Shown: positions 51,721 through 64,000, numbered from the stretch's first letter. The stretch: 64,000 nt of DNA from Spirochaetales bacterium (GCA_947478845.1 CANJXC010000007.1:49939-113938); one strand, 5' to 3'. Numbers and translations are program-made. The notes: generated by a model not told the origin, from the sequence alone.

Positions 51721-52899
51721 CTAAAAAAGACTGTCGAAAGGAACCCCTCTCCAGAGGGGATCGTTGACGCCGGTTCCGTAGCCGCGGAAAAGCGTTGGTC
51801 GCTCGGGAGAAGGGAACTGGAACAACTCCTCGAGTACCAGAACCGCGGCACCGAGGCTCACCTCATCGATCCCGGTCGGTAGAGGGTGCAAAAGGGCCTT
51901 CCCAGCCGGCCAGGCCACCAAATCGCAGGCTTTCAGAACCTCAGAGTAATGGTGCTTCAGGTCACCGCCTAAGTGTATGGTTTGCGGGTCTAAAAGTTCC
52001 GTGGCAAAACGGAGGTTGCGCAGAATCTCCCCAAGGGTCGCCAAAAATATTTGAGGTTCAGAACGGATTTGCCCGAAGGTGTCGTCGTCCAAACCATAGG
52101 CGGAGCGGCTTCCAGGCTTCCAAAGTGCAGAAATAAACTCGCCCGCTGCATGTCGCCAACCGCGATGCAATTGTCCGTTGACAACAAGACCAAATCCTAC
52201 CGAAAGTTCGCTGGGAAAACCCAGAGGTCCATTTTCGAGAAAACGTCCCAACACATACAACTCGTCGGCAGTCGGCTGACCACGACCTAGCCCGCTCCAA
52301 GCGCCGCAGTTGGCGTCGTTTTCCCAAAGGACCGGGAGGTGAGATGGCCATTCCCGCGGACAGGGCGTATGCTTCAGCCCGAACTCATCCGAACGCATCA
52401 CTATCGAAGCGCTGGAATCGATCCAACCCGGGACGGCAATTCCAATGCCCAACAAAGGCGTAACAGCGTGCTGTTCGCTGGCCAGGTCACCGGCCAGCCT
52501 GAGAGCGTGATCCACGTGCCCAGCCCAGTCACCTTGATAGGGTGCAAGAGAGACCTCGCGGGTGGCAATGTTTTCTCCCTGCAGGTTGCAGATGGTGACT
52601 CGAATGCGGTCGCGCCAAAGAGCTAGCCCCCACACCTGACCAAAATCCTCTCGAACTTTGAGGGCAATACGACGGCGCCCCCCGGGCGCGGGACCTTGGG
52701 TCGAGGAACCTTCAATCGTACCGGAACTCTCGACAAGGCCGGAGCTGAGCAATTGACCGACTAACCGCGAAACGCTCGATTCATCGATATCGAATTGGTC
52801 CACCAACTCCCTGCGGCTGATACCGGGATTTTTCCAGACGGCACGGGCCAACACGGCAAGGTTGTTGCGCCTTTGACCAGTTGGGTTAGTGGTCTGCAC
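51721..52899 (-). CDS. ROK-family transcriptional regulator (NagC/XylR type)
   Basis: N-terminal wHTH (ISRRELVDQFDIDESSVSRLV) plus a ROK sugar-kinase-like domain. Confidence 0.8.
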   Translation of the reverse strand: MQTTNPTGQRRNNLAVLARAVWKNPGISRRELVDQFDIDESSVSRLVGQLLSSGLVESSGTIEGSSTQGPAPGGRRRIALKVREDFGQVWGLALWRDRIRVTICNLQGENIATREVSLAPYQGDWAGHVDHALRLAGDLASEQHAVTPLLGIGIAVPGWIDSSASIVMRSDEFGLKHTPCPREWPSHLPVLWENDANCGAWSGLGRGQPTADELYVLGRFLENGPLGFPSELSVGFGLVVNGQLHRGWRHAAGEFISALWKPGSRSAYGLDDDTFGQIRSEPQIFLATLGEILRNLRFATELLDPQTIHLGGDLKHHYSEVLKACDLVAWPAGKALLHPLPTGIDEVSLGAAVLVLEELFQFPSPERPTLFRGYGTGVNDPLWRGVPFDSLF

Positions 52900-53704
52900 T
52901 GTAAACCCTCACCCAGTCTATGGAAAAGGTCCAGGGGAGCGAGGCGTTATCGATACCTTGCTGACCACCCCAGTCTCCGCCTACAGCCATATTGAGAATT
53001 AGGGAGAAAGGTTTGTCGAAGGGCCATTCCTGAACGGTTTTGTGCATGTTAGGAAAAGTATAGACCACCTCACCATCGAGGAGTAAGTCGGCTTTCTCAG
53101 GGCTCCAGTCGAGGCCATAAACGTGGAAAGCCGTCTCTGCGTCGGCTCTATTTTGCCGCGTACCCTTCTGAGTGCCAATCTTAAAATTGAAGGCGCCCGT
53201 GTGGAAGGTCTGCGCAATCATAGTGGGCTCAAAGCCCACATGCTCCATGATGTCGATCTCGCCCGTCGCCGGCCAAGAAGAGGCCACCGGCCCAGCTGCG
53301 ATGTCGATAAACGCTGCATCGGGAAGCATCCAGATGGCTGGCCAACTCCCCACGCCGGTAGGTACCTTGGCCCTGACTTCGATCCGGCCATACAACCAGC
53401 TTTGGCGTGAAGTCAACTTAGCGCTCGTGTAGGGCCACCCCGCGGTCTTCTGCTTCAAAGCCACAATGTGCAACTCTCCGTTGGCAACCGAGCTGTTGTC
53501 GGGTTTGTTGGAATACCATTGCATTTCGTTGTTGCCGAAGCCGCCGCCACCGACGGAAAACGCCCATTTTGCCTTGTCGACTTCTGTGCCGCTAAACTCG
53601 TCGCTCCACACCAGCGTCCTGGTTGCGGAAGCTGACTGAGCAAACAGCGGCGAGTCGCACGTGAGCATCAAGGCTATGGCCATCAACAGCAGACTGGTTT
53701 TCAC
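52886..53704 (-). CDS. Glycoside hydrolase family 16 endo-beta-1,3(4)-glucanase (laminarinase-type), secreted
   Basis: Signal peptide. GH16 catalytic motif GEIDIME. WPAIWMLP. 272 aa. Confidence 0.85.
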   Translation of the reverse strand: MKTSLLLMAIALMLTCDSPLFAQSASATRTLVWSDEFSGTEVDKAKWAFSVGGGGFGNNEMQWYSNKPDNSSVANGELHIVALKQKTAGWPYTSAKLTSRQSWLYGRIEVRAKVPTGVGSWPAIWMLPDAAFIDIAAGPVASSWPATGEIDIMEHVGFEPTMIAQTFHTGAFNFKIGTQKGTRQNRADAETAFHVYGLDWSPEKADLLLDGEVVYTFPNMHKTVQEWPFDKPFSLILNMAVGGDWGGQQGIDNASLPWTFSIDWVRVYSADH

Positions 53705-62891: not shown

Positions 62892-64000
62892 TAAATGTTG
62901 TCGAGGTCAATTTCGGGGATAGTTCCAGAGTTTGTGGAGGACGTGTTGCCGGTGCCTCCCGAAGCCACCGTGCCAAACACGTCGTTGATAACAAAGGGCT
63001 GGGTGACCATGCTCAAATTGAGTTTCGCCGAGCTCGGTTGCGCGTAGGCTGGCTTAGCTTTCGCAGCAATGGTTGCAATGGGTATGCTGACGTCGTGCCA
63101 AGCCCCATCGCGTGAATACCCGTAGGAGTTCGAGCTCGGATCAACAACCAGGTACACGTCCATTGCGTTGTTCTCCACCGGCGATCCGGTCTGGAAGCCA
63201 AACTTCAGGCTGCCTTGGTAAGTGGTCTTGATGGAAAAGTGCAGGTGTCCATTAGCGAACGCTGAGAGGTCTTCCGCGAACGTGTTAGACCCTGCAGAAT
63301 TAACCAGCGTCAGAAAGTAACCCCAACCCCACGAAGCGGGGGCGGGCTGTACCTGTCGATATTTCGTGCTCGAGGCAGCGCCTCCACCGGTGGTAATTTC
63401 GGTGCCAGTCGCCGTCGCTGGGCTGTTCCAGGCATACCAATTGGTGGCCGACACCGGCACTGAAATTGAGCCCGCTACCGCCGTCAAGGCATCGGCGTAA
63501 ACTAAGTACTCATTGTTGGCTGGAGGAGAGTTGACGGTGAGCGTCGTGTAGCAAAGCGCCGAAGCATCGGTGTAGGTCAGACTGGCGGTGACACTTTCGT
63601 TGGCGGGGAGGGTAATCGATTGTCCTCCTAGAGTCACGGTGTTGGCCGTGGCAAACGTGGAATATAGGCTGTAGCGCGCGCTGCGGCTCACGTCAAACAG
63701 GCCCCACCCGTCGTCACCGCCCTTCCACGGTTCGTCGAACGCCTCGAAATAGACAATGCTTTTCGGACCGGTTGTCCAACTTTCAAGGCGGTCAAGGTAC
63801 ATTTTCTGGTTTACCGGGTGCGCCATGTTGTACTCTTCGCTGTTGCTGGAGTTGGTGGCGACGGCTTTCCAGCCGGTTTCTCCAATCGCGATGGGAAGTG
63901 ACGAATATCCTTGGGCAGTGGCGTAGTCTGCGACCGCTTTGTAGGTGGCTTTGAGGTCGACAATGGCTGCATCCATCATGGCTGCCGGCCGCGCCGAAGC
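62876..64000 (-). CDS. Clan GH-A glycosidase (GH17-like beta-1,3-glucanase candidate) with a C-terminal domain homologous to the preceding protein; 5' partial at the window edge
   Basis: IAIGETGW resembles the GH17/GH-A nucleophile motif (xxExGWPS). Only about 33 aa precede it, so the ORF must continue beyond position 64000; the frame is open to the window end. The C-terminus ends in YWTKN. Confidence 0.45.
   Translation of the reverse strand, partial: ASARPAAMMDAAIVDLKATYKAVADYATAQGYSSLPIAIGETGWKAVATNSSNSEEYNMAHPVNQKMYLDRLESWTTGPKSIVYFEAFDEPWKGGDDGWGLFDVSRSARYSLYSTFATANTVTLGGQSITLPANESVTASLTYTDASALCYTTLTVNSPPANNEYLVYADALTAVAGSISVPVSATNWYAWNSPATATGTEITTGGGAASSTKYRQVQPAPASWGWGYFLTLVNSAGSNTFAEDLSAFANGHLHFSIKTTYQGSLKFGFQTGSPVENNAMDVYLVVDPSSNSYGYSRDGAWHDVSIPIATIAAKAKPAYAQPSSAKLNLSMVTQPFVINDVFGTVASGGTGNTSSTNSGTIPEIDLDNIYWTKN

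Follow-up and report, generated by a model that had tools for sequence, protein, structure and literature searches.

A stretch of 64,000 nucleotides from Spirochaetales bacterium (GCA_947478845.1 CANJXC010000007.1:49939-113938), here called the window, carries at positions 51721-64000 a cluster of genes for exported beta-glucanases, an ATP-binding cassette (ABC) importer, a transcriptional regulator and a large cytoplasmic protein of 1084 amino acids (aa) that belongs to glycoside hydrolase family 149 (GH149). Very probably this is a locus with which an uncultured spirochaete utilizes beta-1,3-glucan of the laminarin or chrysolaminarin type, by coupling the importer to intracellular phosphorolysis. 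Laminarin-type glucans are a major carbon source of heterotrophic bacteria, and cleavage by phosphorolysis instead of hydrolysis spares the cell one ATP for each glucose. A previous reading of the same DNA, made from the sequence alone and referred to below as the sequence-only reading, had proposed a locus of this kind, and all of the genes that it described are present in the region (Table 1). Here we describe the genes and signals of the locus, compare it with GH149 loci of other genomes, and weigh the different explanations of its function.

Organization of the locus

The genes for the regulator and GH16a are co-transcribed on the minus strand with an overlap of 14 nt. Divergently from them, the binding protein, the two permeases and the GH149 protein form one plus-strand unit of four genes, on which the minus-strand genes for GH16b, the Big_2 lipoprotein and GH17 converge. 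The GH17 gene, which the sequence-only reading does not mention, is a reading frame that stays open to base 64000; a contig 99.2% identical to the window, L081, extends 3.1 kb past the window end and contains the complete gene. The GH16 proteins, the binding protein and the Big_2 protein all have the strongly hydrophobic stretch of exported proteins (maximal 12-residue Kyte-Doolittle mean 2.2-2.7).

Table 1. Genes and sequence elements of the putative beta-1,3-glucan locus, in window coordinates
Feature	Position	Strand	Evidence
ROK-type regulator	51721-52899	-	Pfam ROK 26.9 bits, HTH_24, MarR_2
GH16a, 272 aa, predicted exported laminarinase-type endo-beta-1,3-glucanase	52886-53704	-	Pfam Glyco_hydro_16 E=1.5e-23
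Operator-like box O1, TCTTGC-N5-GAAAGT	53759-53775		Direct-repeat family D1; 2 mismatches vs O2 pattern
TTGACA hexamer, candidate -35 of transporter/GH149 operon	53792-53797	+	Invariant in three-way alignment
Operator-like box O2, ACTTGC-ACCGT-GCAAGT, perfect palindrome	53827-53843		Read directly from sequence
Family-1 (CUT1) extracellular solute-binding protein, 420 aa	53867-55129	+	Pfam SBP_bac_1 E=4.8e-20
GC-rich hairpin of 12 bp with T-run	55136-55163	+	Terminator scan, folding
ABC permease 1, UgpE/MalG-like, 276 aa	55185-56015	+	Pfam BPD_transp_1, NCBIfam UgpE/MalG
ABC permease 2, UgpA/MalF-like, 307 aa	56025-56948	+	Pfam, NCBIfam
Predicted GH149 beta-1,3-glucan (laminaridextrin) phosphorylase, 1084 aa	56945-60199	+	NCBIfam NF058639, PDB 6HQ6
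GH16b, laminarinase-type lipoprotein	60304-61446	-	Pfam Glyco_hydro_16
Big_2 lipoprotein	61524-62891	-	Pfam Big_2; weak FIVAR and Exop_C matches
GH17 lipoprotein gene, 3' part, cut at window end	62876-64000	-	Pfam Glyco_hydro_17

The 1084-aa protein as a GH149 phosphorylase

The 1084-aa protein matches the NCBIfam equivalog NF058639 ("1,3-beta-D-glucan phosphorylase, GH149 family") with 1222.5 bits against a cutoff of 1150 bits, its residues 5-1044 covering positions 4-1060 of the 1134 in the profile. In the PDB search residues 10-1050 align with the solved GH149 enzyme Pro_7066 (6HQ6; E=1.9e-245, 820 bits), to which the protein is about 36-37% identical, and chains of GH161 and GH94 yield only a local match of ~75 residues at E~1e-6. 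The AlphaFold2 model (pLDDT 78.6, pTM 0.81) gives the same ranking in Foldseek, with template modelling (TM) scores of 0.90-0.91 to 6HQ6/6HQ8, 0.61 to GH161 and 0.56 to the GH94 laminaribiose phosphorylase, the identity to GH161 and GH94 being 13-15% in this fold search. The absence of a Pfam match for the protein only means that Pfam lacks a suitable model, as NCBIfam and the PDB recognize it without difficulty.

The active site of Pro_7066 is formed by R470/D471, W651-N652-D653 with D653 as the catalytic residue, E951 and H959 (PMC6771811). With account taken of the 19-residue offset of the PDB chain, these residues align to R454/D455, W635-N636-D637, E919 and H927 of the 1084-aa protein, and none of the seven varies among 42 aligned homologues of 56-88% identity. 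The sequence-only reading had drawn attention to a WND-containing segment and had expected a catalytic Asp there; the segment is EWND at residues 634-637, and D637 is the residue aligned to the catalytic Asp. Dom 1 and Dom 2 likewise have aligned counterparts in the protein, at about 355-415 and about 830-905, respectively. Like Pro_7066 (6HQ6, 6HQ8; PMC5827456, PMC6771811), the protein is predicted to consist of an N-terminal beta-sandwich, a helical linker, an (alpha/alpha)6 barrel and a jelly roll at the C-terminus, it shares the RD, WND, Glu and His residues of the active site, and it has no signal peptide, in that no hydrophobic N-terminal stretch is found (maximal 12-residue Kyte-Doolittle mean 0.92). 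Unlike Pro_7066, it is ~70 residues shorter overall, mostly in the C-terminal domain.

Taken together, the NF058639 score, the Pro_7066 match, the TM score of 0.90 and the invariant active site show the protein, at the level of sequence and modelled fold, to be a GH149 member with a complete phosphorylase active site. The sequence-only reading had named GH149 and GH161 side by side, with a new family as a fallback, and had proposed profile annotation and structure prediction as checks; both checks narrow the assignment to GH149, and the fallback is excluded.

Exported glucanases and putative glucan-binding modules

The two GH16 proteins, which had been recognized as laminarinases from the sequence, both contain the E-x-D-x-x-E motif of laminarinase-type GH16 in the form EIDIME, at aa 149-154 in GH16a (53243-53260) and at aa 260-265 in GH16b (60652-60669). 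They were placed by Pfam PF00722 and by their solved relatives rather than by a dedicated CAZy-subfamily tool, and the nearest of these relatives are endo-beta-1,3-glucanases. Among solved structures GH16a is most similar to the laminarinase 3ILN (E=7.3e-67), with the beta-1,3(4)-glucanase 7WWC second and many endo-1,3-beta-glucanases following; for GH16b the laminarinases LamCAT, 4CRQ and 3AZX come first (E about 1e-40 to 1e-44, top 2e-44). The earlier description of both proteins as lipoprotein or secreted holds in full for GH16b, which has the classical lipobox VSGC and an extra N-terminal domain of ~100 aa before the GH16 domain. GH16a has a signal peptide, as judged by hydrophobicity, followed either by a relaxed lipobox or by a signal peptidase I site. 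The full GH17 protein on L081 is 629 aa long with the lipobox AMGC, and its best PDB match is 6FCG, a GH17 family protein (E=1.3e-27). Homology and export signals thus show GH16a, GH16b and GH17 to be exported proteins of the endo-beta-1,3-glucanase type.

Between the GH16b and GH17 genes lies that of the Big_2 lipoprotein (lipobox LGGC), in which a Big_2 Ig-like domain and FIVAR-like helical repeats precede a C-terminal beta-sandwich module resembling the carbohydrate-binding module (CBM) families CBM11 and CBM30. The C-terminus of GH17 is a homologue of this part, which comprises about 120-160 aa. The minus-strand gene string runs on past window base 64000 (L081 15932-20161), and includes a second Big_2 lipoprotein of 484 aa, whose C-terminal region matches CBM_11 weakly; the protein has the same DNIYF-type motif at its end. 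A further cut open reading frame (ORF) of 259 aa on L081 has no family match. NCBIfam gave no match for the GH17 and Big_2 proteins.

The C-terminal module has 85 representatives at E<=1e-3, often with several copies per protein. Nearly half of the scanned module proteins (19 of 40) carry a GH16 domain and 21 of 40 match Exop_C, while CBM30, SGBP_B_XBD and CBM_11 recur among them. Single module sequences stay below the Pfam cutoffs (Exop_C 21.4, SGBP_B_XBD 20.2 and CBM_11 19.0 bits); with a profile of 20 module sequences, E-values of 4.6e-8 and 1e-4 are reached for the CBM11 of Clostridium thermocellum endoglucanase H (1V0A) and for CBM30, respectively. A structure model of the Big_2 lipoprotein, built from a 5-sequence alignment without the L081 homologue, was too poor for use (pLDDT 50.4, pTM 0.34). 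From the profile matches and the co-occurring domains, the modules are probably beta-glucan-binding, and the Big_2 proteins would therefore be analogues of surface glycan-binding proteins (SGBPs), which makes the Big_2 lipoprotein a candidate surface beta-glucan-binding protein.

Importer and translational coupling

Matches in Pfam and NCBIfam agree with the sequence-only reading that a family-1 binding protein is clustered with MalG/MalF-like permeases. The binding protein carries a signal peptide, and among its relatives of solved structure are Lin1841, which binds beta-1,2-gluco-oligosaccharides, and a protein that binds cellobiose. Its ribosome-binding site and ATG at 53867 are invariant in two related loci, L082 and L084, the GH149 proteins of which are 70% and 88% identical to the one here. 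Permease 1 starts with GGAG and ATG at 55176-55187, and its relatives are called at 276 aa. The ORF finder had placed this start at a GTG at 55134, which was rejected since it sits within a hairpin; the real start is the ATG at 55185. The TGA of permease 2 overlaps the ATG of the GH149 gene as ATGA at 56945-56948 (junction sequence CAATGAAA), as had been read before; by this overlap, translation of the GH149 gene is coupled to that of the last permease gene.

By its family matches the transporter consists of a CUT1-type binding protein and two permeases, with no ATPase gene. We found no gene for a CUT1-type (MalK/MsmK) ATPase in the 64-kb window nor in the 3.1 kb beyond it on L081, which bears out the earlier remark that a dedicated ATPase is missing; the window's ABC ATPases comprise two ABC-F proteins plus a double ATPase of the CUT2 type. 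A relative with 69% identity keeps an MsmK-like ATPase inside its locus. We infer that a shared MsmK-like ATPase encoded elsewhere energizes the importer, and this is consistent with the data.

Regulator, operator-like boxes and a conserved hairpin

The regulator has an N-terminal winged helix-turn-helix (HTH) region, matched by HTH_24 and MarR_2 at residues 19-57, and a divergent ROK sugar-binding domain, and its Pfam ROK score is to be read against a cutoff of 22.9 bits. NCBIfam gave a weak NagC/Mlc match, and the best solved relatives are the ROK repressors Lmo0178 and XylR (E about 1e-9). The proposed ROK regulator is retained on these matches as, at best, a divergent member of that family. 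On its other side the regulator gene converges with a class II fumarase gene (50281-51720, plus strand), the two stop codons adjoining with 0 bases in between (51720/51721), and the junction showed no terminator-like structure.

Palindromic operators had also been claimed, and here the outcome is divided. Box O2, ACTTGCACCGTGCAAGT, is a perfect 17-bp palindrome located 24 nt upstream of the binding-protein ATG, and it is the sole perfect match to its pattern in the window and L081; O1 is an imperfect copy of it within the divergent promoter region. When the intergenic region between GH16a and the binding protein was aligned with those of L082 and L084, the arms of both boxes were invariant and the spacers (5 nt in O2) varied. 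The TTGACA hexamer between O1 and O2 is likewise invariant and may serve as a -35 element. Within the window, a mismatch search for the palindrome found 3 copies with 3.9 expected, which is not above chance, and a second, degenerate search found 6 with 2.7 expected, a number that 7 of 100 shuffles reached. Because the degenerate matches are not above chance, the case for an operator is built on O2 as a perfect copy, on where it lies and on how it is conserved, not on a regulon; conservation across relatives supports the palindromic operators better than the within-window statistics do. No copy was found upstream of the minus-strand GH16b, Big_2 and GH17 genes in the window or L081. Most likely, the ROK-type protein acts as a putative repressor of both promoters via the two ACTTGC-N5-GCAAGT-type boxes. 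Another stretch of the window, TCTTGCGTTTGGCAAGC at 45285-45301, matches the operator pattern with 2 mismatches; it is intergenic, upstream of a DUF2400 gene (45770-46690), and is probably a chance match.

Directly after the stop codon of the binding-protein gene the transcript can form a hairpin with a folding free energy of -23.6 kcal/mol (z = -5.1). It is kept in L082 and L084, where two pairs are preserved through changes on both sides. The hairpin may be a partial terminator or a 3'-end stabilizer that would raise the expression of the binding protein over that of the downstream genes.

GH149 loci in other genomes and known systems

GH149 homologues are abundant, with more than 8000 matches and at least 596 confirmed loci in reference genomes, among the listed matches of which the best is 59-61% identical, so that no close relative is among them. 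We counted neighbours in 80 of these loci. GH16 lies within 10 kb in 43 of the 80, GH17 is present in 10 and homologous CUT1 permeases in 6, and ROK homologues were found in only 2. The CUT1 combination is also seen in L001, L006, L007, L051, L069 and L075. A locus in a metagenome-assembled genome of Treponema combines a binding protein, two permeases, GH149, GH30, GH16-CBM4_9 and a two-component regulator, and that of the 69%-identical relative has a binding protein, GH16, GH149, GH30, the MsmK-like ATPase, GH1 and permeases. In L082 and L084 an extra gene overlaps the GH149 stop codon (13267-14550, 427 aa, and 7211-8257, cut at 349 aa, respectively); for the copy in L082 there is no match in NCBIfam and none on record in Pfam. 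The window lacks this gene, which could encode an uncharacterized partner enzyme of GH149, and has the convergent GH16b in its place.

Papers of 2018-2019 have already described the GH149 family, the mechanism of its enzymes and the clustering of its genes with GH16, GH17 and sugar transporters, and the published cluster analysis reached the same functional conclusion, namely degradation of external beta-1,3-glucan (PMC5827456). Three kinds of cluster were described there: Type I with an Opp/Dpp-type ABC cassette and LacI or AraC, Type II with a TonB-dependent receptor, GH16, GH17 and a major facilitator superfamily (MFS) transporter, and the SusCD polysaccharide utilization loci (PULs) of Bacteroidetes (PMC5827456). 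The spirochaete locus resembles them (PMC5827456) in placing GH149 with a sugar importer and the beta-1,3-glucanases GH16 and GH17. It differs in that the importer is CUT1 without an ATPase gene instead of Opp/Dpp, TonB with MFS, or SusCD, the regulator is of the ROK type, and the glucanases and binding proteins are lipoproteins. As read from these genes, the set of CUT1 importer, ROK regulator and lipoprotein glucanases in a spirochaete is outside the three published types. Our literature search found no paper detailing a GH149/ROK/ABC combination or a spirochaete GH149 locus.

Gram-positive clusters with GH161 and GH94, which belong to the same clan GH-Q, likewise pair an ABC importer lacking its nucleotide-binding subunit with a cytoplasmic phosphorylase, and for them, too, a shared ATPase has been hypothesized (PMC6484121). 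GH161, however, stops at a degree of polymerization (DP) of 3 and thus co-occurs with GH1, GH3 or GH94, whereas GH149 reaches DP 2 (PMC6484121); the spirochaete locus has no beta-glucosidase gene. The laminarin PULs of marine Bacteroidota (bioRxiv 10.1101/2023.09.07.556657) provide a parallel for the Big_2 proteins, as they contain non-catalytic lipoproteins with Ig-like spacers and beta-sandwich modules beside GH16/GH17, with the same module attached to a glucanase as well. The differences are the spirochaete host, the ABC importer in place of SusCD, and the predicted module, which by profile is nearest to CBM11/CBM30.

Proposed pathway

In the pathway that we propose, the lipoproteins GH16b and GH17, together with the Big_2 lipoproteins and their CBM11/CBM30-like modules, would capture and cut the polymer at the cell surface. 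The oligosaccharides would enter the periplasm, where GH16a may trim them further, and the binding protein would hand them to the permeases, powered by the shared MsmK-like ATPase. In the cytoplasm GH149 would use phosphate to remove glucose from the non-reducing end as alpha-glucose 1-phosphate. Since characterized GH149 enzymes act down to DP 2 (PMC6484121), the end products would be glucose 1-phosphate and one glucose, and no beta-glucosidase gene would be needed in the locus. Imported oligosaccharide would release the ROK-type regulator from both boxes, and the hairpin would leave more transcript of the binding protein than of the permeases and the phosphorylase. A gene for a strong ROK-family glucokinase is found at 26040-27002 in the same window.

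Weighing the explanations

Several points speak against this interpretation or limit it. Substrate, chain-length preference and induction of the locus are assigned by homology, the identity to the only solved GH149 enzyme is limited to about 36-37%, and the active-site loops of the AlphaFold2 model are of low confidence. The locus has no GH30 beta-1,6-debranching enzyme, so branched laminarin might be used only partly. The residues E990, Y993 and E994 of the surface oligosaccharide-binding site of Pro_7066 are Q, R and E in the 1084-aa protein, and therefore the handling of long chains may differ; also, the C-terminal domain is ~40 residues shorter. We consider these structural differences minor, and as the surface site is poorly conserved in distant GH149 members (PMC6771811), Q, R and E at these positions have no bearing on membership. 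On the side of regulation, the ROK match is weak, the ROK zinc His/Cys motif is unrecognizable in one pairwise alignment (AGEFIS versus AGEFGH of Lmo0178, with no Cys after it), and a sigma-70 scan found no full promoter consensus in the divergent intergenic region.

Among the other explanations, the one that deserves most attention keeps the enzymes and the mechanism and changes the natural substrate to another beta-glucan, either a mixed-linkage beta-1,3/1,4-glucan of the lichenan kind or a fungal, yeast or euglenid beta-1,3-glucan. The second rank of 7WWC among the solved matches of GH16a would fit this, as would the missing GH30 and the similarity of the modules to CBM11/CBM30, families known from enzymes for mixed-linkage and beta-1,4-glucans; we nevertheless regard it as unlikely, given that the top matches of both GH16 proteins are laminarinases or endo-1,3-beta-glucanases, that GH17 and GH149 are beta-1,3-specific in all characterized cases, and that the modules are mostly found together with GH16 domains of that type. 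It is far less likely still that GH149 is mainly synthetic, building an intracellular beta-1,3-glucan reserve from glucose 1-phosphate with an incidental transporter next to it. The reactions are reversible, Pro_7066 builds chains up to DP 11 in vitro, and genes for polyphosphate and glucokinase functions are found in the same window, but translation of the gene is coupled to that of an oligosaccharide importer, exported endo-glucanases lie all around it in a pattern that recurs across phyla, and the phosphate of the cytoplasm normally favours phosphorolysis. The chance that the 1084-aa protein represents a new family, or GH161 or GH94 instead of GH149, is negligible: the blank Pfam result and the short, weak similarity to GH161/GH94 (~75 residues) that might suggest it are outweighed by the equivalog score above cutoff, the 820-bit full-length match to a solved GH149, TM scores of 0.90 against 0.61 and 0.56, and the existence of at least 8000 homologues, and the score, the Pro_7066 match and the fold comparison refute it. 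Utilization of laminarin-type glucan by import and GH149 phosphorolysis is therefore the reading that we prefer.

Other features of the window

One minus-strand string comprises genes for polyphosphate kinase 1 (22385-24505), a Ppx/GppA phosphatase that has an HD domain (24514-26043) and the ROK-family glucokinase mentioned above, an arrangement suggestive of a connection between polyphosphate and the phosphorylation of glucose; the score of the polyphosphate-glucokinase model is only 29.6 bits, with a cutoff of 250. The stretch 15973-22367 encodes a TRAP-type transporter, composed of a DctP binding protein and a fused DctQ-DctM membrane protein, and, after 2.6 kb, a TAtT "T-component" (21498-22367), an arrangement known from spirochaetes. 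On this TAtT gene and on RadA, which gives matches of 57-62% in Spirochaetales/Spirochaetia, rests the probable placement of the host among the uncultured Spirochaetia. A second sugar cluster at 4655-12593, unrelated to the glucan locus, encodes a regulator with a GntR HTH and a periplasmic-binding domain, the CUT2-type double ABC ATPase, two BPD_transp_2 permeases, an FGGY carbohydrate kinase and a xylose-isomerase-like TIM-barrel protein. An unexpected gene beside housekeeping genes at 38569-40836 encodes a 755-aa protein with M60-like (enhancin-type) peptidase domains; M60-like peptidases are glycoprotein- or mucin-directed metalloproteases. Rfam and tRNA scans of the window were empty.

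Implications

Knowledge of the pathway itself is unchanged by this locus, as the enzyme family, the mechanism and the association with GH16, GH17 and sugar transporters have already been published, and by its predicted genes the set of GH149, GH16, GH17, CUT1 and ROK varies the transporter and the regulator of a known kind of system. What the locus adds to the users of GH149 is an uncultured spirochaete lineage that would be ABC-based and not SusCD- or TonB-based. It also yields a candidate ROK operator, a conserved intra-operon hairpin and a distant CBM11/CBM30-like module common to GH17 and two lipoproteins. Tentatively, and at rather less than even odds, we suggest that these traits together make up an undescribed third GH149-cluster architecture typical of a freshwater or environmental spirochaete lineage, with surface lipoprotein glucanases, SGBP-like Big_2 lipoproteins carrying a distant and unclassified CBM11/CBM30-like module, an ATPase-less CUT1 importer coupled to GH149, and a ROK repressor without the zinc motif acting on ACTTGC-N5-GCAAGT. 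If true, this architecture would be a SusCD-independent analogue of the laminarin PUL of Bacteroidota.

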